Source: Patescibacteria group bacterium (GTDB taxonomy: Bacteria; Patescibacteriota; Gracilibacteria; UBA1369; 2-02-FULL-48-14). From it: 64,000 nt of DNA. Shown in pieces: positions 13,387-35,658 of this stretch; positions within the stretch are counted from its first letter, which is position 1, and each line of letters starts with the position of its first letter. Below the pieces are notes generated by a model. That model saw nothing but the letters and a program-made list of their open reading frames with translations, did no database searches and had not been told where the DNA came from. The DNA lies in assembly GCA_018816805.1 (NCBI GenBank), contig JAHIVE010000005.1:39102-103101 (forward strand), in the 5' to 3' direction. The position numbers and the translations under genes were made by a program.

Positions 13387-13714
13387 GGGCCAGTAGCTCA
13401 GTGGTTAGAGCAGTCGGCTTAAGATAAACTTTCTAAGTTGAAACTCAATATGAAAATTTATAAAGGGCCTCATGTGAAGAAATTCACATGTGAATTCTGT
13501 CAAATTCGGGGAAATCTTCTGTTGTCACAAGTCTGACAACAATGACAATCCCGAGCCAAGCCCCGCAACGCGCGGGGAAGGTGTAGAGACTAGACGGCAG
13601 GCACCCCTCAGGGGTGAAGGGATAGTCCAGCTCACAAACCCGAAAGGGATTATGAAAATAATAGTGAGAAGCATAACCGATTGGTCGAAAGTTCAATTCT
13701 TTCCTGGCCCACCA
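13387..13714 (+). tRNA. tRNA with anticodon CAU (Ile2-like elongator; Met not excluded), interrupted in the anticodon loop by a group I intron; CCA encoded
   Basis: 5' half at 13387-13419: acceptor GGGCCAG, D-arm GCTC/GAGC, anticodon stem GTCGG, then CT. 3' half at 13672-13714: CATAA, CCGAT, TGGTC, T-arm GAAAG-TTCAATT-CTTTC, CTGGCCC, A, CCA. All stems pair. G1-C72 and the anticodon stem argue against an initiator. The D-arm and variable loop resemble E. coli tRNA-Ile2 as I remember it. Confidence 0.85.
13420..13671 (+). ncRNA. group I self-splicing intron (IC3-like, no ORF), 252 nt
   Basis: Core strings resemble those of the Azoarcus tRNA-Ile and cyanobacterial tRNA-Leu introns as I remember them: GTCAAATTCGGGGAAATC (13499-13516), CCGAGCCAAG (13551-13560) and GAAGGTGTAGAGACTAGACGGCA (13577-13599). 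There are GAAA-capped hairpins at 13471-13490 and 13639-13648. The last exon nt is U (13419) and the last intron nt is G (13671). Confidence 0.85.
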
Positions 13715-13728
13715 AACACATCCATTAC

Positions 13729-14352
13729 ATGAGTATGAAACAAAAAAATGCGGTAATTATTTATCAATCCAAAAAAGGTGATCTTCGCCTAAAAGGCGAC
13801 CAACAAAAAGAAACTATTTGGGCATCACAAGCACAAATAGTTGAGATTTTTGAAGTTGATCAATCTGTGGTTTCTCGCCATATTCACAATATTTTCAAAG
13901 ACAAAGAAGTAAACAAAAAAAGCAATATGCACTCTATGCATATTGCAAATTCTGACAAACCTGTAAATTTCTATTCTTTAGACGTAATTTTAGCGGTTGG
14001 CTATCGTACAAATTCGTCCAAAGCGATAGCATTCCGCGCCTGGGCTACAAAAACACTTCGTCAGCACATGACACAAGGCTACACACTAAACAAAAAAAGA
14101 GTTAGCCAGAATCTTAATCAATTTCTAAAAGCCGTCTCTGAAGTAAAAGCACTAATACCGGCAGAATCAGGAACTGATATGAGAGAAGTACTTAACTTAA
14201 TTTCTACCTTTGCAAACACCTGGTTCTCTCTTGAAGCATATGACTCGAACAAATTTCCGGAGAGAGGACTGACAAAGAAAGAAGTTCAATTTACAACTGA
14301 AGATCTAAAGGAGGCAATTAATACTCTTCGAAAACAACTTATCAATAAATAA
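13729..14352 (+). CDS. RhuM family (virulence-island associated, putative DNA-binding) protein, short form
   Basis: The family-typical core VIIYQSKKGDLRLKGD..ETIWASQAQIVEIF......SRHIHNIF...E.........YSLDVILAVGYRTNSSKAIAFRAWATKTLRQHMTQGYTLN is present. The track start at 13681 lies inside the tRNA, so ATG 13729 is preferred. The stop TAA at 14350-14352 abuts tRNA-Ala. Confidence 0.8.
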   Translation: MSMKQKNAVIIYQSKKGDLRLKGDQQKETIWASQAQIVEIFEVDQSVVSRHIHNIFKDKEVNKKSNMHSMHIANSDKPVNFYSLDVILAVGYRTNSSKAIAFRAWATKTLRQHMTQGYTLNKKRVSQNLNQFLKAVSEVKALIPAESGTDMREVLNLISTFANTWFSLEAYDSNKFPERGLTKKEVQFTTEDLKEAINTLRKQLINK

Positions 14353-14429
<77 letters not shown>

Positions 14430-26633: not shown

Positions 26634-26815
26634 TTTATTAGGGATTAGTAGTCAATTTTAAAAGGCCTCTTGGGCCATTTGTTCTTACGACATAAATATT
26701 ACGCCCAAAATTTAAAAAAAACAAGTGATTTTTCTCTCAAAATCTGCTATACTTATTAGATAAAAAACAAAAATAAATGAGATTTAAATTCCTAGAAAAC
26801 AAATATAGGACCAAC

Positions 26816-27703
26816 ATGATACTCCTTGCAGTGTGCGCTGCAGCGTTTTTTGCTTCAATTCCACACCTGGCACATGCCGCTTTCCTACCTCTTCCTTCAA
26901 CTGAAGAGCTGGACGTCCCAACTCCCACAGGAGAAACAGCAGCTGAACGTTTTGAAAGCATATTGGGGCCACTTGCAAGGTCAATTAGAATCGTTGTTGG
27001 TGCAATTGCCGGTCTATTAATAGTTGTATCAGGTATAACAATGGTTCTTGGCGGAGAAAGCGAAGAAACAGTAACAAACCAGAAAAAATCAATAATGTAC
27101 GGAGTAATTGGTCTAATTATGATAAGTGTTGCAGGTCCAATTGCAGAAGTTTTTGACTTTAGAGCTGGAAACATAGTTGCAGATGACAAACTAATGCTAG
27201 AGAGAGCTGCACTTTTTAACAGCGCAACACGGCTAATTATTACTTTTTTGAAATATATGCTGGGTTCGTTGGCTGCACTTATGTTTATCCGTGCTGGTGC
27301 AACAATGGTTATGTCAGGCCAAAGCGAAGAGGACATTACTCGAGAAAAAAAGAATCTCATTTATTCGGGTGGAGGATTAATGATGGTCATTTTTTCAGAC
27401 CTTGTTGTCCGCAAAGTACTATTTGCTACAAGCTACAACGAAGACACACAACAAACTGTTGCTGCAGTTAATCAAAACGAATTTGTAACCCAATTGGTTG
27501 CAATTACAAACATTGTGGTCAGCTTTGTAGGACCGGTGATGATGCTTGGATTGGTTATTGGAGCAGTAATGTTTGTAACCGCTCATGGCAACGAAGAACA
27601 GACGGAAAAAGCAAAAAAGATTATAATCAATTCAGTGATTGGTATTGTAATAATATATGGGGCATTCGCTCTTGTTTCAACAGTAATTAACGGAGTCTTC
27701 TAA
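26816..27703 (+). CDS. membrane protein made of three tandem VirB2/TrbC-like (CPR T4SS-pilin-like) hairpin units
   Basis: Signal peptide MILLAVCAAAFFASIPHLAHA, then three units of TM, charged loop, TM. The loops are GITMVLGGESEETVTNQKKSIMYGVIG, GATMVMSGQSEEDITREKKNLIYSGGG and AVMFVTAHGNEEQTEKAKKIIINSVIG. The track ORF starts at 26777; ATG 26816 is preferred. Confidence 0.7.
   Translation: MILLAVCAAAFFASIPHLAHAAFLPLPSTEELDVPTPTGETAAERFESILGPLARSIRIVVGAIAGLLIVVSGITMVLGGESEETVTNQKKSIMYGVIGLIMISVAGPIAEVFDFRAGNIVADDKLMLERAALFNSATRLIITFLKYMLGSLAALMFIRAGATMVMSGQSEEDITREKKNLIYSGGGLMMVIFSDLVVRKVLFATSYNEDTQQTVAAVNQNEFVTQLVAITNIVVSFVGPVMMLGLVIGAVMFVTAHGNEEQTEKAKKIIINSVIGIVIIYGAFALVSTVINGVF
26939..27700 (+). 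repeat. intragenic triplication of the pilin-like hairpin (units about 26939-27157, 27197-27424, 27476-27700)
   Basis: Read from the protein sequence. Repeat similarity is at the protein level, not the nucleotide level. Confidence 0.7.
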
Positions 27704-28668
27704 TGAAAAAATTCTCAATAATTATATGCGCGCTACTGATGCAACTCACTCTAATTTCAACTGTGAGTGCGGCAACAAGTTTTGATTATAAAGATACGCT
27801 CAAGCAATTTTCTGAAGATATTGAAACAATTAGTGAAGATCTATCCGACCAAACAGAAACAGATACGGATGGTGTAATTTCATTGCCCACTTTCCAAGCT
27901 GACGATGAGCAGGAGGGTGCAAGCACAATTGCACTGGCAATTCAAAGATTCATGAATTTTTTCAAATTGCTGGTTGCACCTCTAGCAATTTTGGCAATAG
28001 TGATCGCCGGAGTTAAATTGGTTACAGCCGGACGTGACAGCGAAGAAGCCGCAACAAAAGCAAAAAACTTCATTCGTTATGCCGCAGAAGGCCTGATAAT
28101 CATTATTATTGCTGACCAGATCATTAACGTAATTTTTGGGCCTACCGGAGAAATTTTCAGAGGAGGCCAGGCGGGCGCAGAAGAATATGGAAGAAAAACT
28201 GCACAACTTATGGAAGGAATCTACAGCTTAATTCAAGTAATTATTGGTTCAGTCGCAATTTTCATGATTGTAATAGCTGGTATGCGTTATGTGGCCGGAT
28301 CCGCTTCAGACGAACAAATTGCAACTGCAAAAAAACAAATCACTTGGGCCTTGATTGGACTTTTTGTTGTGGGAGTATCTGAATTTGTTGCAAAAGACAT
28401 TTTATTCCAGCAACAAGGAACAAAAATTGGTTTTGATCAAGCAAAACAACTTTTCGCACAGGTTACAAACTTTGCTGCAGGCACAATCGGCACACTTTCA
28501 TTCGCTTTTATGCTTTATGCAGGTTACCTATACGTGACCGCCCAAGGCGACGAAGACCAAGTTGCCAAAGCAAAAAAGATAATTTTTGGTGCCATAATTG
28601 GCATTTTGTTGGCTGGATCAGCGTACGCAATTACTTCAACCATTGTTCAACTTGATGCTTCAAGGTAA
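27703..28668 (+). CDS. second membrane protein made of three tandem VirB2/TrbC-like pilin hairpin units
   Basis: Signal peptide ...ISTVSA, an acidic linker, then three units with loops GVKLVTAGRDSEEAATKAKNFIRYAAEG, GMRYVAGSASDEQIATAKKQITWALIG and GYLYVTAQGDEDQVAKAKKIIFGAIIG. The start codon overlaps the upstream stop (TAATG). Confidence 0.7.
   Translation: MKKFSIIICALLMQLTLISTVSAATSFDYKDTLKQFSEDIETISEDLSDQTETDTDGVISLPTFQADDEQEGASTIALAIQRFMNFFKLLVAPLAILAIVIAGVKLVTAGRDSEEAATKAKNFIRYAAEGLIIIIIADQIINVIFGPTGEIFRGGQAGAEEYGRKTAQLMEGIYSLIQVIIGSVAIFMIVIAGMRYVAGSASDEQIATAKKQITWALIGLFVVGVSEFVAKDILFQQQGTKIGFDQAKQLFAQVTNFAAGTIGTLSFAFMLYAGYLYVTAQGDEDQVAKAKKIIFGAIIGILLAGSAYAITSTIVQLDASR
27922..28653 (+). 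repeat. intragenic triplication of the pilin-like hairpin (units about 27922-28140, 28192-28407, 28438-28653)
   Basis: Read from the protein sequence. Confidence 0.7.
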
Positions 28669-28702
28669 TTAACTCTATAATGCAGTGGAAAAATCACACG
28701 CC

Positions 28703-31700
28703 ATGAGAATTCGAAAACTTTTTACGGGATTAGCTCTAACGCTTATCGCAACTTCCATGTTTGCGATAGCACCGCTAGCTTCCGCAATTTCTTTTGATGT
28801 TGCGGTAGGTGATCCGGACGCTTCTCAAGGTGACATTACAGCTGCAGAATGTGCTGGCCTTGAAGACAGCTTGGCAGCTTCAATGGGTTGTAATTCGGAA
28901 GATGAAATTATTGACTTCACCACATATAGAGGAGAGCTAGATGCTCCTGACGAAAGCGGGTATGACACAGCACTAACAAAAACAAAGAGCGCCAGAGAAA
29001 TGGTCCAGTTGATTGTGAATTTTGCACTTTCATTCTTAGGATTAGTTTCCACAGTAATAATAATTTATGGAGGTGTAATGTACGTGCTGAGCCGTGGGGA
29101 TGAAGAAATGGCAACAAAGGGAAAGAAAGCAATCTCATACGCGGTTGTTGGTATTGTGATCATTTTGGCTTCTTTTGCAATTGTTAACACTCTTATTGGT
29201 GCAGCCGGGGGAGGAAACGCCGGATCAGGGGACGGCATTACCGGCGACACAATTTCCCAGGCAGGCGCTGGCTTTGACGTTGAACAAGTTCTGGATGAAC
29301 TAACCTCAATTTCTGAAGACTATGTTTACGCCTACGACACACTCATTTTTGTAAATCAAGAAGTCGAATACCTAAAATCGATTGAAATGCCACTGATTGT
29401 GGATGTAGTTGAGACGGATGTGAGCATTGGAGGAATATCAGAGTGGATCACACATCTTGGCACTGACCAAGATTTATCTGACCAATACCAACTCATTGAT
29501 GAAAACGACGTGGATGAATATATAAGTGATCTAAGGCAAGGTCTCCAAAAAATTCAAAGAGAAGTAGATTCACTAAGTGATACCTACGAGAAAGTCCAAG
29601 AACTCTACAACTATCTTAGGAGCGGCGGCTCACAAGCAAACACAACGCTAAATGAGATAGCTGAGCTACTAATACCAATGGCAAATGCATATGAAGGTAC
29701 GGATGGCTGCAGTTCAAGATCCTATTCCCACAATCCGGTATCTTTAAGTGAAGGATTCGGTATCAACTCTACTCAAACCAAAGTCAGCGAAATTGACGAC
29801 AACATCTGTCCCGCACTGGATGACATTCAAGCCGCCGCAGAATCAGACTATGTAGAGGCAGTAGATGAACTTATTAAACGAACAGACGACTTAGCAGCTC
29901 TTTTTGACACCGGTGGCCAGGAAGGCTCAACACTAAATTTGATACGCAAACGTTTCGAGCTTATCGACACGCAACTTGAAACAGCAAAGGATCGCATTAC
30001 AAACCAAACAAAAAGAGATGTAATTGGTGCAATAAATGACGCTTACGTCTTGGTTCAAAACGTAAAATTTGTTAACGCAATAATCAATACAAGTGGCACC
30101 CGCGGGAACGCACCATATATTGTTCGATTCGACGCACTTGGCTCAACTGACCCAAGCGGAAGAACAATTGATGACACAAAAATTCAATGGGATCTAACAG
30201 GAAATGGGCAATTCAATGACGCAACAGGCGCGTCCGTAAGCTGGGAATATTCTAAAGCCGGTACTTACCAGGTCGCCGTTCGCATATTTAGCACACAGGA
30301 TGACATAGCCGCAGGTATTGGAAGAATTACAATAATTGTTGAACCACGCTCATCAGCTATAGTTGTTTCAGCAGAAGCAGGGGGTGAAACAACCCAAATA
30401 GCAGATTTCAGAGAATTTCCATACATTGATAAAGACTCGTACAAGGTTACCTTAAACGAAGCACAATCCGGAATAACATTTGACGCCTCAGCATCTGAAG
30501 GGGCTAACAAAGAAAACATTGAGCAATGGGAATGGAATTTTGGTGACGGAGCAACAATTTCAGGCGGATCTGAAGTCTCATCCGTTACACACGCATACGG
30601 TGAAGCTGGCCAATATAAAGTTGAACTAACCGTCACTGACGCAGTTAGAATCCAGGACAGGCACGTTTTTGTAGTCTATGTAGATTCACCAGCCGCAAGA
30701 ATTGAAGCAACTCCGTCAACAGGCAAAATTGGAACAAAATTCAAACTTAGCGCAGGAGGCTCCACAACGGATGCGGGCACAATAGTTAGTTATCAATGGT
30801 CTGTGACCCCGGTTGGAAGTGATTCTTTTTCATCACAAACCGGCAGTAATGTTGAAGTCGAATTTGACTCGCCGGGAGTCTACACAGTTACTTTGTTGGT
30901 AGCTGATTCAAGTGGAAAAACAGACGACGCATCCCTTGACATATTAGTTGAATCTCAAACACCGGATGCAAAATTCACATATTCGGTCCCAAACGCAACT
31001 GAACCGGGCACATACCATTTTGACGCTTCTGACAGCTACGACCCTGATCCAAATGATGAGATCATATACAACTGGGATTTTGGCGGAGATGAAGGCGCAG
31101 ACTTTGAAATCTTGGACGACAACAATTTTGGTGAAGATATGACTGTTCGTTTCTTAAGAACAGGAAAATATGAAGTATCTTTAACAGTTTGTGACCAACA
31201 TCAAGAAGAATTACAAAAATGTGAAGATGCAGTTGCAGAAATCAATGTGTCCTCTGTATTAGATGTTGAACTCACAATTCAAGCAGGTGTAACAAGACGT
31301 TTGGATGAAAGCGGCGAAGAAAGCGTTAATTTTGAAGCATACAGTAGATCCGCAAACGCATTTGAAATTGACTACGGAGATGGCGAATCTGAATACACAG
31401 ACTTAATCACAAGCGGATTCGCAAATTTCACTCACGCATATACAAGAGCAGGAGTGTTTAATGTTACATTGACAGTTTATGACGAAGGGGAGGGACGCAA
31501 CTCAATAACAAGAAGAGTTTATATTGCATCCGGCGAAAACCCAATTGCAGTAATAAGTGTAGCGGCAGATGGTGAAGATATTGGCTTTGGTGACGAACTT
31601 TCAGGGAACGTACAAACACGTTTCACTTTTGACGCATCAGACTCAATAAATACTGACGGAACCACCAACAACCTCTCGTATACCTGGAATTTTGGAGATG

Positions 31701-33499
31701 GCACAACAGCCTCTCAGAAGAGCACCACAAAAACATTCGAAGAATTAACAAATTATACAGTAACCCTAACCGTTAAGGACAAAGATGACCCAAGTCTTTC
31801 AGACCAAAGCACAGTCTATATTCGCATTCAAGGAATTGACCCTGAAATAAAGGGGATCACAATAACACCTGCCTCAGCCACACTTGAAACGCCACTCAAA
31901 GTAAACGTTAGCGTTAATGCTTCAGACAAAGATGGCCGAATAAATTTTGTAAAAGGTTGGTATTATGACGTGAACGACTCTGCAACCGCCCTTGGAACTG
32001 TAATTTCAGAATCCACAAATTTCTCCCTCACAATCAACACAAAAGGTGAGCAAGACGAACAAGTCACTTACGGTTTTGCCGCTGAAGTCACAGACAATGA
32101 CAACAGAACCGTAAATTCATTCGAAGAACTCCAAGAGTCGGAAATCCCAAAACTCACAGTCACAAACGGACCAAATGACACGCCGGTCGCAAACTTTTCA
32201 GTGGATAGAACTTCATTTTTGGTAGGGGAAGAAGTTGTGTTTTCATCAACCTCATACGACCCGGATGGCGAAATTGTTGAATATGTGTGGGACGTTGAAG
32301 GTGACGGTTTCTTTAATAACGAACCTCAAGAAACACCCTCTTTTACTTATATATATCATGACGTTCACACGAGCGGCGTAAAAGTTAAATTAAAGGTAAC
32401 AGACAATGCCGGCGCAACAGCAACTTCAAAAGAACTCACTTTATATGTGGATACTTTGGCGTCACCTCCGGATGCAGCGTTCCTAGCTGACGTAAATGGC
32501 CTAAATGTAACTTTCCACGACAACTCTACATTCGACACAGCAAACCAAGCTGACTTCAAAGGAATATCTTGGGATTTTGACACAAGCGTGGACAGCAACG
32601 GAAATGGAGTAACAGATGATGATAAAGATTCTCTAGATAGAAATCCCAGCCACACTTATGACGAACTGGGCACGTACCGTGTAAGCATGACAGTAACAGA
32701 TACCTTCGGTAAGAGTGACTCAGTCACAAGAGAAGTATTGGTTGCTAACGCAGCTGACCCGGTTGCAGCTTTCACATTTAGCCAAACAGACGACTTCTCA
32801 ATTGCTTTCCAAAACAATTCCACAACTGACGAAGATGCAGGCGCGCTTGTAAGAAGCTTTGAATGGGATTTTGACACAAATTACGACTCAGATGGTGACG
32901 GAAACAACGCTAATGACGTGGATAGCATAATCAAAAATCCTGACTTCAATTATGACGACTTTGGAACATATTCGGTTAAATTAACCGTAACAGACGACTT
33001 TGGCAAAAAGGATTCTGTTACAAATAATGTAGAGGTGTCTTCTCCAATCCAACCCGTAACAGCACTACTTGCAACTGTCCCACAAACAAATGCAAACAAA
33101 CAGATAATTATGAGCGGAACCTCAGGTGACATTACAATATTCTACAATGCGGAAGGAGGTAGTGGAAATTTCACATATAGAATTGATAAAAATATCTTTT
33201 TTGACACGTCAGGGGACGGCATAAAAGATAATGACATTGATTACTCATCACGAACATCAGGCAGTTGGAGAACAAATTTTGATAAATCTTGGGGACAAAT
33301 TGTAATTAAACTCACAGTTATTGATAACACGACCGGTGACAGCTCGTTCTCAACAGCGCAAGTAATTTTTCAAGGCAGTCTAGCGGGAGCAAATCTCTTT
33401 AACGCTACACCTTCGGAAATGCTATTTTTAATAATCAGTGCACTCTTAGTAGCAATTGTAGGAGTGTCATTAGTATTTAGTTTTAAACCCGTAAAATAA
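28703..33499 (+). CDS. giant surface protein: signal peptide, one pilin-like hairpin, ~300-aa helical region, about ten PKD/Ig-like domains, C-terminal TM anchor
   Basis: The hairpin is VSTVIIIYGGVMYVLSRGDEEMATKGKKAISYAVVGIVIILASFAIV (nt about 28991-29200). PKD signatures recur (WNFGDG, WDFGGDEG, YGDGESEY, WDVEGDG, WDFDT..D..G.G). The C-terminus is LFLIISALLVAIVGVSLVF. The track start at 28685 is GTG; ATG 28703 is preferred. Confidence 0.8.
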   Translation: MRIRKLFTGLALTLIATSMFAIAPLASAISFDVAVGDPDASQGDITAAECAGLEDSLAASMGCNSEDEIIDFTTYRGELDAPDESGYDTALTKTKSAREMVQLIVNFALSFLGLVSTVIIIYGGVMYVLSRGDEEMATKGKKAISYAVVGIVIILASFAIVNTLIGAAGGGNAGSGDGITGDTISQAGAGFDVEQVLDELTSISEDYVYAYDTLIFVNQEVEYLKSIEMPLIVDVVETDVSIGGISEWITHLGTDQDLSDQYQLIDENDVDEYISDLRQGLQKIQREVDSLSDTYEKVQELYNYLRSGGSQANTTLNEIAELLIPMANAYEGTDGCSSRSYSHNPVSLSEGFGINSTQTKVSEIDDNICPALDDIQAAAESDYVEAVDELIKRTDDLAALFDTGGQEGSTLNLIRKRFELIDTQLETAKDRITNQTKRDVIGAINDAYVLVQNVKFVNAIINTSGTRGNAPYIVRFDALGSTDPSGRTIDDTKIQWDLTGNGQFNDATGASVSWEYSKAGTYQVAVRIFSTQDDIAAGIGRITIIVEPRSSAIVVSAEAGGETTQIADFREFPYIDKDSYKVTLNEAQSGITFDASASEGANKENIEQWEWNFGDGATISGGSEVSSVTHAYGEAGQYKVELTVTDAVRIQDRHVFVVYVDSPAARIEATPSTGKIGTKFKLSAGGSTTDAGTIVSYQWSVTPVGSDSFSSQTGSNVEVEFDSPGVYTVTLLVADSSGKTDDASLDILVESQTPDAKFTYSVPNATEPGTYHFDASDSYDPDPNDEIIYNWDFGGDEGADFEILDDNNFGEDMTVRFLRTGKYEVSLTVCDQHQEELQKCEDAVAEINVSSVLDVELTIQAGVTRRLDESGEESVNFEAYSRSANAFEIDYGDGESEYTDLITSGFANFTHAYTRAGVFNVTLTVYDEGEGRNSITRRVYIASGENPIAVISVAADGEDIGFGDELSGNVQTRFTFDASDSINTDGTTNNLSYTWNFGDGTTASQKSTTKTFEELTNYTVTLTVKDKDDPSLSDQSTVYIRIQGIDPEIKGITITPASATLETPLKVNVSVNASDKDGRINFVKGWYYDVNDSATALGTVISESTNFSLTINTKGEQDEQVTYGFAAEVTDNDNRTVNSFEELQESEIPKLTVTNGPNDTPVANFSVDRTSFLVGEEVVFSSTSYDPDGEIVEYVWDVEGDGFFNNEPQETPSFTYIYHDVHTSGVKVKLKVTDNAGATATSKELTLYVDTLASPPDAAFLADVNGLNVTFHDNSTFDTANQADFKGISWDFDTSVDSNGNGVTDDDKDSLDRNPSHTYDELGTYRVSMTVTDTFGKSDSVTREVLVANAADPVAAFTFSQTDDFSIAFQNNSTTDEDAGALVRSFEWDFDTNYDSDGDGNNANDVDSIIKNPDFNYDDFGTYSVKLTVTDDFGKKDSVTNNVEVSSPIQPVTALLATVPQTNANKQIIMSGTSGDITIFYNAEGGSGNFTYRIDKNIFFDTSGDGIKDNDIDYSSRTSGSWRTNFDKSWGQIVIKLTVIDNTTGDSSFSTAQVIFQGSLAGANLFNATPSEMLFLIISALLVAIVGVSLVFSFKPVK
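30077..33050 (+). repeat. tandem PKD-like domain array (approximate bounds)
   Basis: W-x-F/W-G-D-G type motifs recur roughly every 85-100 aa, each followed by a ...Y.V.LTVTD... strand. Confidence 0.7.
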
Positions 33500-33501
33500 T
33501 T

Positions 33502-35658
33502 ATGGAAGACACCACACCCCAGCCGCAAAATCCAAATTCGGAAGCACATAATCCGGAACAACAAGCAACGCCAAGCCAACCGCAAACCGAGCAAACTCCG
33601 CCACCTGTGCCAACACCCGGCACGGTCACTGAGCAAACTCCGCAGGTGCCACAACAAGATAAAAACGCAAAAAAACCAGTAAAAAAAGGCTCTGCTTTCA
33701 AGAGATTATTACTCATGCTTGGACTGGTATTCCTTCTTTTATTTGTTTTTGAATTCGTTTGGGCCTCAACCTTAGCAAAAGGCAGCGCATTAGATAAACT
33801 AATACTAACGGTTACAAATATTCAATGCGGCATTTTAGTTGGAGCTTCACTTCTGTACGCGCTCTTTGGTTTATTAAAATCATTGCTTGCAAAAAAAGAT
33901 CCATTAAAAAAGAAAAAAGCTACAAAAACAGCACTCGTAGGCGGAGTTTTCTTCCTATTATCAGCACTTCTTTGGCTTTTTGCAGTCATTTATCTTCCAC
34001 CACGCCTCACGCCGGAACAACAATATGTTTCATACATATTAACTGATCCAGCAGTGACTCTTGGCTTAACAGCACCAATTGAAGTTGAATTTGATGCAAG
34101 CCAAATACCGGTTGATACAAACGCATTTAGAGTTCTCTCATACACCTGGAATTTTGGAGACGGAGGTACTGCAAACGGCCCAACCGTTTCACATAGATTC
34201 ATCCAAAAACCACCAAATGGAACCTACAACGTAGTTCTAAAAGTATCCTTTATGGATCTGAAAACAGGGGAACAATTATCTGAAGAGTTTACTACAGTAG
34301 TAGGTATTGAAAATGAAGAAGTCGCTGCAATTTTCACCGCAACCCCTTCCAGCGGGAACGTGCCCTTGGATGTTGAATTCAACGCATCCTCATCATACGA
34401 CCCGGACGGAGAAATAGTTGCATATGACTGGGATTTTGATGGCGATGGCAGCTATGACGACGCTTCCGGAGTAATTGTTTCATACACATTCGAACAAGAA
34501 GGCGAATTTACAGTGGGCTTAAGAGTTACGGACAATAACGGACAATATGCAACCACAGCATACAAAATTGAAGCAGGTAGCGTTGGAGGACTAAGAGCAG
34601 TAATTAGCGCACCACTACAAACGGACGAAACATATAAAACAGGAGAAAAATACAAATTCTCAGGCGAACTTTCTCAAATAAGAGAAGGGGAGGTTGTTAA
34701 ATATGTTTGGGACTTTGGTGACAAATCTGACACAATTCAATCAAGAACAGCCACTCATGAATTCACAAAATCTGGCGACTACGAAGTTTCTTTAACAGTT
34801 TTTGACGTTGATGGAAATTCCCACACAGCAACACTGGAAATCAAGGTTGTTGAACAAGGAACACCACCTTCGGCAAAAATAAAAACATCTCCGGCTGCAC
34901 AAAATAATGTAACCTCAGGAGCGGTGCCATTTGAAGTTTCTTTCGACGCCTCAAGTTCAACTGACCCAGAAGATGACATTGTTGAATATGAATGGGATTT
35001 TAACAATGACGGAGTTATTGATGATTCGGGTGACAAAGTAACTTACACATATGAAGAAGTAGGTGTATATGAAGCAAAACTAATTGTCACTGACGCTGCA
35101 GGAAACTCAAACACAATCACAATTGGCATTTCTGTTGAAGAACAAGGAATCGTAGCCAGGTTGAGCGCAAACGTAACCAATGGCGAGGCACCTCTAACAG
35201 TTACATTTGATGCATCATCATCTTCGTATAAAGAAGGAAACATTGTTTCATATGAATACGACTTTGGTGATGGATCTGACGTACACGTTGGCGGCGCAAA
35301 AATTTCATACAAATATATTAATGTAGGTAATTTCACCGTAAAACTCACTGCTATAGGTGAAGATGGAACCAAGGACACAACAACTATGCAAATTGTAGTC
35401 AGACCGGTTGAGATAACTGCTTGTTTCACGGTAAATACAGACAGTGGTAGTGCACCTCTTTTTGTTGCGGTTGATCCAATATGTTCAAAAGGGACAATCA
35501 GATCATATGTATGGGATTTTGATGATGGTGAAATCAGTTTTGACAGAAAACCTGACATCCATACTTATTCCGAACCAGGGACATACACCATCTCATTAGA
35601 AGTTACCTCTGAGGACAGAACAGTAGATGTATTTGAAAAAACCATCACAGTAAGATAA
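33502..35658 (+). CDS. membrane protein: Pro/Gln/Thr-rich N-terminal tail, TM segments with a Lys-rich loop, six PKD-like domains
   Basis: N-terminus PQPQNPNSEAHNPEQQATPSQPQTEQTPPPVPTPG. TM hairpin LVGASLLYALFGLLKSLLAKKDPLKKKKATKTALVGGVFFLLSALLWLF. PKD motifs are YTWNFGDGG, YDWDFDGDG, YVWDFGDKS, YEWDFNNDG, YEYDFGDGS and YVWDFDDGE. It starts 2 nt after the upstream stop codon. Confidence 0.8.
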   Translation: MEDTTPQPQNPNSEAHNPEQQATPSQPQTEQTPPPVPTPGTVTEQTPQVPQQDKNAKKPVKKGSAFKRLLLMLGLVFLLLFVFEFVWASTLAKGSALDKLILTVTNIQCGILVGASLLYALFGLLKSLLAKKDPLKKKKATKTALVGGVFFLLSALLWLFAVIYLPPRLTPEQQYVSYILTDPAVTLGLTAPIEVEFDASQIPVDTNAFRVLSYTWNFGDGGTANGPTVSHRFIQKPPNGTYNVVLKVSFMDLKTGEQLSEEFTTVVGIENEEVAAIFTATPSSGNVPLDVEFNASSSYDPDGEIVAYDWDFDGDGSYDDASGVIVSYTFEQEGEFTVGLRVTDNNGQYATTAYKIEAGSVGGLRAVISAPLQTDETYKTGEKYKFSGELSQIREGEVVKYVWDFGDKSDTIQSRTATHEFTKSGDYEVSLTVFDVDGNSHTATLEIKVVEQGTPPSAKIKTSPAAQNNVTSGAVPFEVSFDASSSTDPEDDIVEYEWDFNNDGVIDDSGDKVTYTYEEVGVYEAKLIVTDAAGNSNTITIGISVEEQGIVARLSANVTNGEAPLTVTFDASSSSYKEGNIVSYEYDFGDGSDVHVGGAKISYKYINVGNFTVKLTAIGEDGTKDTTTMQIVVRPVEITACFTVNTDSGSAPLFVAVDPICSKGTIRSYVWDFDDGEISFDRKPDIHTYSEPGTYTISLEVTSEDRTVDVFEKTITVR
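34054..35655 (+). repeat. tandem PKD-like domain array (six units, approximate bounds)
   Basis: Six W/Y-D/N-F-G/D-D-G motifs at regular spacing. Confidence 0.7.

Follow-up and report, generated by a model that had tools for sequence, protein, structure and literature searches.

A CAU-anticodon tRNA gene, very probably for tRNA-Ile2, with a compact group I intron between positions 33 and 34 in a Patescibacteria genome

A tRNA gene with the anticodon CAU, interrupted by a group I intron, lies on the forward strand of contig JAHIVE010000005.1 of a Patescibacteria group bacterium (Gracilibacteria, assembly GCA_018816805.1), within a 64,000-nt stretch of DNA that we analysed as a whole and call here the window. 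Its elements are listed in Table 1. In-silico joining of the two exons produces a cloverleaf of 76 nt whose anticodon loop has 7 nt (CU-CAU-AA) and whose variable loop has 5 nt (UGGUC); the spliced product is identified by ARAGORN as tRNA(cat), and the exon-exon junction reads GTCGGCT followed by CATAACCG. The two halves, their complete cloverleaf and the 252 nt between them had been noticed in an initial annotation and are borne out here. Re-checking also confirmed the core strings named there, GAAGGTGTAGAGACTAGACGGCA (13577-13599) and GTCAAATTCGG (13499-13509), as well as the GGCC at 13466-13469 and the GAAA-capped hairpins, whose loops are those of P2, P9a (13642-13645) and P9b (13654-13657). 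By BLAST, the window matches an ENA contig of a separate assembly record at 100% identity over 6,755 nt, split gene included.

The splice junction was slid from -4 to +4, and U as the last exon nucleotide (U-1) and G as the last intron nucleotide (omegaG) are found together only at 13419/13420 and 13671/13672, the one junction for which the initial annotation had combined these two features with a 7-nt loop. The covariance model Intron_gpI of Rfam (RF00028), which had been proposed as a check, matches 13448-13652 with 68.1 bits against a gathering threshold of 50 (E 3.8e-15). This match spans the whole model (positions 1-253 of 253), and it falls short of both intron ends because the P1/P2 segment of the model was misaligned onto the P1 loop. 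The presence of a tRNA(CAU) gene split at 33/34 by a group I intron is confirmed. ARAGORN, the second check proposed, gave a mixed outcome: it recognized the joined halves, but its intron-permitting mode returned a false call, which is considered below with the alternative readings, and its default run on the unspliced window reported only tRNA-Ala and tRNA-Gln and missed the split gene. A scan for promoters and terminators around the split gene gave no signal above shuffle expectation.

Table 1. Elements of the split tRNA gene and of its intron (positions in the window)
Element	Position	Strand	Composition	Evidence
5' exon of tRNA(CAU)	13387-13419	+	Acceptor 5' strand, D arm, anticodon stem 5' strand, C32, U33	ARAGORN cloverleaf after in-silico splicing; sequence
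Group I intron	13420-13671	+	252 nt, no ORF; omegaG = 13671	Rfam RF00028; U-1/omegaG rule
3' exon	13672-13714	+	Anticodon CAU 13672-13674, A37, A38, anticodon stem 3' strand, variable loop, T arm, acceptor 3' strand, A73, encoded CCA 13712-13714	Sequence; ARAGORN cloverleaf
P1	13416-13469	+	Exon GGCU and intron U13420 (13416-13420) / guide GGGCC (13465-13469)	Guide covariation; MFE fold
P1 extension	13424-13461	+	P1a 13424-13428/13457-13461; P1b 13430-13433/13452-13455	Conservation; covariation; MFE fold
11-nt-receptor-like motif	within P1 extension	+	UCUAAG (13432-13437) / UAUGA (13449-13453); distal mini-hairpin 13438-13448	
P2	13471-13490	+	8 bp; GAAA tetraloop 13479-13482	Helix 4: 8/8 pairs compensatory, 94.3% paired
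P3 5' strand	13496-13501	+	UCUGUC; partner GGCAGG 13596-13601	Helix 5: 100% paired, one compensatory pair
J3/4, P4, J4/5	13502-13557	+	J3/4 13502-13505; P4 13506-13511/13549-13554; J4/5 13512-13514	Helices 6-9
P5, P5a, P6 5' strand	within 13502-13557	+	P5 13515-13516/13544-13545; P5a hairpin 13520-13527/13534-13541; P6 5' strand 13555-13557	
P6a, P6 3' strand	13561-13582	+	P6a hairpin 13561-13566/13572-13577; P6 3' strand 13580-13582	Helices 9-10
J6/7, P7 5' strand, J7/3, P3 3' strand	13583-13601	+	J6/7 GUA; P7 5' strand GAGACUA 13586-13592 (A13587 bulged); J7/3 GAC; P3 3' strand 13596-13601	
P8	13602-13616	+	Hairpin CACCCC-UCA-GGGGUG	Helix 12: 5/6 pairs compensatory, 91.2% paired
J8/7, P7 3' strand	13617-13628	+	J8/7 AAGGGA; P7 3' strand UAGUCC 13623-13628	Helix 11: 100% paired, invariant
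P9 three-way junction	13631-13668	+	P9 13631-13635/13664-13668	Covariation; MFE fold
P9a, P9b	within P9 junction	+	P9a 13639-13641/13646-13648; P9b 13649-13653/13658-13662; both GAAA-looped	

A manual model of P1 to P9, guided by the Azoarcus register and by the seed alignment of Williams, was projected onto a MAFFT alignment of 25 introns of the same setting. All helices form, as the manual folding called for in the initial annotation was meant to establish: the 15-helix model, including the P3/P7 pseudoknot, leaves 92.5% of the cells paired across the 25 homologues, a share that drops to 35-46% in controls with the 3' partners slid by 1-3 columns; as the structure was read off the window itself, the 92.5% is somewhat inflated. 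Changes on both sides of a pair, which are compensatory, occur in 47 of the 78 pairs; the covariation score is 0.368, compared with at most 0.106 for the slid controls, and none of 500 shuffles reached the observed values by any measure. P3, P4, P6 and P7 are 100% paired and almost invariant, and covariation is found in P2, P5a, P6a, P8, P9, P9a and P9b. Every invariant column of the 25-sequence alignment is retained by the window intron. Moreover, the 328-nt precursor has a minimum free energy (MFE) of -112.7 kcal/mol (z = -6.0; none of 100 shuffles folds as well), and this fold recovers independently the tRNA arms, P1 with its extension, P2, P5a, P6a, P8 and the P9 junction.

P1 is 95.9% paired among the homologues (helix 1), with U13419-G13466 as the splice-site wobble; G13465 has an alternative partner in C13672, as a P10 of a single base pair. 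The role of internal guide ascribed earlier to the GGCC at 13466-13469 is upheld by the covariation of guide and exon. In fact, at the 46 loci that share this insertion site, the segment just upstream of P2 varies with the host exon (GGCU/GGCY, GACU/GGUU), and the switch is a compensatory change from G-C to A-U; P10 has at most 1-3 bp at these loci. Where the exons are kept together by the tRNA body, a P10 this short is the usual case. The P1 loop, 44 nt long, forms the P1a/P1b extension, in which seven of the eight pairs of helix 3 show compensatory change and CUAAGU...AUAUG is kept in most of the 25 homologues.

The motif NCUAAG...UAUGN' of the P1 extension, present in the window and in most relatives, coincides with what we take to be the consensus of the 11-nt GAAA receptor; its flanking pair covaries (UA 8, GC 5, CG 4). 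From this resemblance we infer a receptor function for the motif.

Within the core, P4 (UCGGGG/UCCCGA) is completely paired and almost invariant in the 25 homologues, and all eight pairs of P5a covary. The P5 region of the window intron reads UCUUCUG...CAAUGA where most relatives have the canonical receptor CCUAAG...UAUGG, and a comparison of these sequences suggests that one tertiary contact might be weaker here. The segment from J6/7 to the 3' strand of P3 is identical in 25 of 25 sequences and lies inside the 23-nt string that is common to the Azoarcus-type seed Aol6.Ile2.5Ug; P7 is presumed, by analogy with the Azoarcus and Tetrahymena introns, to be the guanosine-binding helix. The helices of the P9 junction (13-15) are 95-97% paired, with compensatory changes in 10 of 13 pairs.

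Over alignable positions the window intron is 72-82% identical to all representative published seeds of tRNA introns. The nearest seeds are those with a branched P9 (Arg.3Ug 82%, Met.2Ug 81%, Leu.3Ug 80%), and the lowest value is that of Ile2.2Ug (72%). An assignment to type IC3 is supported by this similarity, which holds for seeds of the settings Leu.3Ug, Arg.5Ug, fMet.2Ug and Ile2.5Ug, classed as IC3 in GISSD (cited in Williams), and traits consistent with this type were recognized by eye: no P2.1, no P5abc, J3/4 AAAU, J6/7 of 3 nt and J8/7 of 6 nt. Together with the shared 23-nt core, the identity to the seeds agrees with the compact IC3-type intron, resembling those of Azoarcus and cyanobacterial tRNAs, that had been recognized at first reading.

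The exact 23-nt core GAAGGTGTAGAGACTAGACGGCA is present in at least 120 species genomes, and the junction of each of these loci was re-derived under the U-1/omegaG rule. Among the matches listed, the Azoarcus arrangement, in which the intron follows CAU (36/37), accounts for about 32 loci, all Betaproteobacterial, and a CAU tRNA split at 33/34 is found at 45 loci besides the window; in all 46 of the latter the intron ends in G. A further 17 loci have the same 3' exon junction, and the 5' exon was recovered for ten of them. A CAU tRNA gene split at 33/34 is present in at least 62 species genomes, Peri-, Peregrini- and Gracilibacteria among them, and the class extends, among the matches listed, over CPR, Chloroflexota, Omnitrophota, Planctomycetota and Acidobacteriota. 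The tRNA bodies of these matches comprise about 40 of the window type (GGGCC...) and, as a separate group, 22 initiators. Bodies nearest to that of the window come, among the matches listed, from MAGs of Peregrinibacteria, Peribacteria and Gracilibacteria (loci L022, L026, L048, L057, L063, L068, L072, L093, L114 and L119); other bodies of the window type belong to Chloroflexota, Acidobacteriota, Planctomycetota, Parcubacteria and MAGs labelled Bdellovibrionales. Genes that lack the intron and whose anticodon arm is exactly that of the window tRNA occur in at least 120 metagenome contigs, the best being identical to the spliced product at 69 of 73 positions, and since such genes are common, the distribution of the intron is sporadic. 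The NifU, NifS, RsmB and RhuM proteins of the window were searched for by tblastn at 240 loci and none matched at E <= 1e-10; these loci thus revealed neither a gene neighbourhood in common with the window nor an orthologous empty site.

Ten relatives have longer introns, of 606-651 nt, the extra length being a conserved ORF of 121-127 aa encoded on the opposite strand in the P1 loop. One copy reaches the Pfam HNH family (22.2 bits against a gathering threshold of 21.4) and two others stay below it; all three scored copies have an N-terminal treble-clef motif in common. In locus L011 the ORF is frameshifted. No remnants of the HNH ORF were found by tblastn in the window intron, and no description of an antisense HNH gene in a tRNA intron was found in the literature searched. 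A pairing of GGUUAUG, near the 5' end of the long introns, with CAUAACC of the 3' exon was considered and rejected, because this heptamer complements the His-Asn-Pro codons of the HNH gene and varies at synonymous sites.

The identity of the host tRNA was addressed through published discriminators. The combination of G3 or A3 with C70 or U70 never occurs in elongator-Met or initiator genes and indicates tRNA-Ile(CAT), in which C4-G69 and C5-G68, the TilS determinants of Escherichia coli, are frequent; A11-U24 marks the initiators, and the discriminators are, according to their own authors, less than absolute across distant phyla (Silva 2006, PMC1635315). The window tRNA has G3-C70, C4-G69 and C5-G68, and it has C11-G24, so A11-U24 is absent. 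It also differs from an initiator in having G1-C72, C11-G24 and C29-G41 in place of a 1:72 mismatch, A11-U24 and G29G30G31/C39C40C41.

Full-coverage BLAST against E. coli was ambiguous, with rare tRNA-Asn in the top rows (77.6%), and for this reason the discriminators and direct alignments were used. In this one reference species the best BLAST E-value (1e-8) belongs to the tRNA-Ile gene between mug and nfeF, which is presumably ileX; the alignment with this type of tRNA is gap-free, with 60 of 76 positions identical, and the D arm, D loop and variable loop are the same. By direct alignment metT reaches 59 of 76 with six gaps, and the initiator metZ 50 of 76. Moreover, G3-C70 is present in 39 of the 41 window-type tRNA bodies, the remaining two matching the acceptor stem of E. 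coli ileX (only rows in correct register were compared). On the discriminators and the gap-free ileX alignment, the host is very probably the lysidine-dependent tRNA-Ile2, as its D arm and variable loop had suggested in the initial annotation.

The only serious alternative is that the intron is as described and its host is an elongator tRNA-Met, the setting called Met.2Ug, which we regard as improbable. In its favour are the somewhat closer similarity of the window intron to the Met.2Ug seed Sba135 than to the Ile2.2Ug seed, and a forced metT alignment almost equal to that of ileX; it has also been pointed out that Met and Ile(CAT) genes are separated by proximity to profiles rather than by single determinants (Silva 2006, PMC1635315). 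However, G3-C70 is reportedly found in no Met or fMet gene and C4-G69 with C5-G68 agrees with the TilS determinants of E. coli (PMC1635315), and the elongator reading has against it the six gaps of the metT alignment and the acceptor stems of the window-type bodies. In 20 credible ORFs of the window AUA makes up 114 of 10,093 codons (11.3 per 1000), that is 17% of the Ile codons, and since AUA codons are in use a decoder for them is needed. It is plausible that splicing is essential. No PP-loop (TilS) motif was found within the 64-kb window.

A second alternative, that the intron is a decayed relic which no longer splices and that the locus is a tRNA pseudogene, is very unlikely. The endonuclease gene of the relatives is absent from the window copy and the P5 receptor region is non-canonical, which speaks for a relic, but all helices are intact with standard pairs, all invariant core columns are kept, the two exons are undamaged, with the canonical features of a tRNA in place and the CCA encoded, and the AUA codons in use require a decoder. 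ORF-less mini-introns of this size are, besides, the norm for tRNA introns (the Azoarcus-type seed has 208 nt). The window intron is probably an intact, functional member of the tRNA-intron family, judging from these sequence features.

Bacterial tRNA-Leu carries a long variable arm, and tRNA-Leu(UAA), the host of the cyanobacterial and plastid intron, is spliced after U34. A tRNA-Leu(UAA) with its intron at the canonical 37/38, the output of ARAGORN -i ('tRNA-Leu (taa) i(37,252)'), which arises because this program assumes that position and the intron by chance begins with UAA, is rejected with near certainty: the junction shifted by +3 would leave A last in the exon and U last in the intron, which breaks the group I rule, the variable loop of 5 nt is no long arm, the guide pairs with GGCU so that the wobble falls at U13419, and relatives whose introns begin with CAA, CGU or UGA all restore CAU.

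The reading that we favour, with high confidence, is that positions 13387-13714 are a single gene for the AUA-decoding tRNA-Ile2, into which a group I ribozyme of the bacterial tRNA-intron (IC3) family, 252 nt long and devoid of an ORF, is inserted between U33 and C34. By homology with the Azoarcus and cyanobacterial tRNA introns, the guide GGGCC of the precursor would pair with exon GGCU and the first intron U to form P1, at the cost of the lower part of the anticodon stem. An exogenous guanosine held in P7 would attack after U13419, the U of the U-G wobble; G13671 would then take the site of the guanosine and the 3'-OH of U33 would attack the 13671/13672 bond, joining CU to CAUAA and releasing the intron. 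The GAAA-capped L2, L9a and L9b, along with the receptor-like motifs, probably serve as clamps that hold this fold. C34 is presumably converted to lysidine by TilS, and with the intron immediately upstream of C34, splicing would have to come before this modification. The window copy has no endonuclease gene, and it would therefore not be independently mobile. To our knowledge U33 is universal in tRNAs, so that the U-1 required for splicing is always on offer at position 2 of the anticodon loop; this may explain why that position has been invaded in initiator, Ile2 and other tRNAs.

A broader scenario can be put forward as a tentative one, which we hold to be rather doubtful: the window intron may belong, as a form without the endonuclease, to a lineage spread between distant phyla (CPR, Chloroflexota, Bdellovibrionota-labelled MAGs) by a small antisense HNH homing endonuclease of the P1 loop, and an 11-nt GAAA-tetraloop receptor in the P1 extension may dock the substrate helix on one of the two L9 GAAA loops. 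No description of a contact between a P1 receptor and L9 in bacterial tRNA introns was found in the literature searched.

The main value of the locus is the correction of annotation. As ARAGORN misses the gene by default and gives a false tRNA-Leu(UAA) when introns are permitted, an automatically annotated Patescibacteria genome would seem to be without its AUA decoder. CPR genomes are small and usually have single-copy tRNAs; if the gene is single-copy here, about 1% of all codons would depend for their translation on a ribozyme. Structural comparisons gain from the locus a further compact IC3 ribozyme of 252 nt, whose P9 is branched and whose P1 extension bears a receptor-like motif. The known range of such introns is unchanged by it.

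Split tRNA genes of this kind have been surveyed on a large scale. In about 80,000 bacterial genomes 5,292 intron-split tRNA genes have been mapped, with four classical settings (Leu.3Ug, Arg.5Ug, fMet.2Ug and Ile2.5Ug, all IC3 in GISSD) and 17 new ones; Met.2Ug and Ile2.2Ug are present in the seed alignment, and metagenomic assemblies from unnamed phyla have 0.49 split tRNAs per genome (Williams, bioRxiv 2020, doi 10.1101/2020.01.27.920355). Group I introns have also been noted in some tRNAs of circularised, mostly CPR, genomes (Lui et al. 2021, PMC8172020). The initial annotation named cyanobacteria and a few proteobacteria as the known hosts of such introns, a view superseded by that catalogue and by the at least 62 species genomes found here. 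Nor are the kind of host and the position new, as had been supposed, since Ile2.2Ug and Met.2Ug were already catalogued and CPR tRNA introns had been remarked on (PMC8172020). The locus belongs to a catalogued class, of which it is an ordinary and well-preserved representative; no report of tRNA-Ile introns specifically in Patescibacteria was found in the literature searched.

The Ile2.2Ug and Met.2Ug settings of Williams share with the window the insertion between U33 and C34, the U-1/omegaG rule and a CAU host tRNA. The Met.2Ug seed Sba135 shares the general layout, with the P9 branched as in the window, and has 81% identity over the aligned positions; the Ile2.2Ug seed Gba28, the single one published, represents a more divergent lineage (72%) with different P4-P6 and P7 flanks and an unbranched P9. 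The 44-nt P1 loop extension of the window intron, with its receptor-like motif, is absent from both Sba135 and Gba28.

The cyanobacterial fMet.2Ug intron (seed Tpc1) resembles that of the window in its position at 33/34, before CAU, its IC3-type core, its branched P9/P9a/P9b with a GAAA loop and its large P1-loop insertion. Its host, however, is an initiator with a C1xA72 mismatch, A11-U24 and a GGG/CCC anticodon stem, whereas the window tRNA has G1-C72, C11-G24 and C29-G41. The two also differ in coding content: the window intron has no ORF and its relatives have the antisense HNH gene and not a PD-(D/E)XK gene in the sense direction; the fMet intron copy of Synechocystis encodes I-Ssp6803I.

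The Azoarcus Ile2.5Ug intron, which serves as the structural model of IC3 ribozymes, differs from the window intron in lying after the anticodon (36/37), in an exon ending in CAU and a guide GUG, in a length of about 205 nt, in an unbranched P9 and in having no P1 extension. It is nevertheless similar to it in its tRNA-Ile2 host, in a P2 with a GAAA loop and in 78% identity over the aligned positions, and the 23-nt string from J6/7 through P7 and J7/3 to P3', as well as GUCAAAUUCGG, are identical in the two introns.

The split tRNA-Ile2 gene at 13387-13714 was missed by ARAGORN at default settings and named tRNA-Leu(taa) when introns were allowed. At the homologous loci of other genomes, the program's 'Leu(taa)', 'Leu(caa)', 'Thr(cgt)', 'Ser(cga)' and 'Val(cac)' were likewise false; the U-1/omegaG rule (U as last exon base, G as last intron base) gives CAU at every one of these loci. 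Split tRNA(CAU) genes of this type are an annotation pitfall. The scan of contigs for the exact 23-nt intron core (loci L002-L121) also gave calls for other host tRNAs, several of which fit two junctions: candidate Arg(UCU/CCU/ACG) introns in Vibrio, Enterovibrio, Colwellia and Alphaproteobacteria, a candidate Leu(UAA) intron at L007, from a Bacteroidia MAG, and possible introns of Lys, Asn, Ser and Tyr tRNAs in other MAGs.

Introns related to that of the window carry in the P1 loop a conserved ORF of 121-127 aa, antisense to both tRNA and ribozyme; the ORF-bearing introns (L026, L048, L072, L093, L003, L011, L015, L016, L032 and L041) are 606-651 nt long. Its product, probably a homing endonuclease, begins with a CxxC treble-clef and is HNH-like at its C-terminal end. 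One copy scored 22.2 bits against Pfam HNH (cut-off 21.4) and the others scored below the cut-off; the L011 copy is frameshifted. No description of this antisense arrangement was found in the literature searched. In the window, two mechanical ORFs (70 and 80 aa) lie inside structured RNA; they show no similarity to the relatives' HNH ORF, are absent from the gene calls of the identical ENA contig, and are almost certainly spurious.

Downstream of the tRNA, at 13733-14429, lie a RhuM-family gene and tRNA-Ala(GGC), with two ORFs that lack annotation (211 and 109 aa) coming next; the arrangement may represent a small island lodged between tRNA genes. Elsewhere, the cluster at 26777-35658, which has no relation to the split gene, resembles a module for the cell surface or pili of CPR bacteria.

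Features of the window discussed in the text
Feature	Position	Strand	Remarks
Receptor-like motif	13432-13453		P1 extension; UCUAAG 13432-13437, hairpin 13438-13448, UAUGA 13449-13453
Mechanical ORF, 70 aa	13484-13696	-	overlaps intron and 3' exon
Mechanical ORF, 80 aa	13490-13732	+	overlaps intron and 3' exon
RhuM-family gene	ORF end 14352		starts 19 nt past tRNA-Ile2 CCA; Pfam PF13310 on identical ENA contig
tRNA-Ala(GGC)	14353-14429		directly adjoins RhuM-family ORF end
Two TrbC/VirB2-like multi-pass membrane proteins, 308 and 321 aa	within 26777-35658
Proteins of 1,604 and 718 aa	within 26777-35658		follow TrbC/VirB2-like pair; PKD-repeat surface-protein look, from translations alone

The window intron has three GAAA loops (L2, L9a and L9b, capping P2, P9a and P9b), and its P5 receptor, at the usual site, is non-canonical (UCUUCUG...CAAUGA). 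The putative receptor in the P1 extension, a match to the 11-nt GAAA-tetraloop receptor (CCUAAG...UAUGG), is kept by the majority of the 25 homologues in the alignment, and the pair flanking it covaries.
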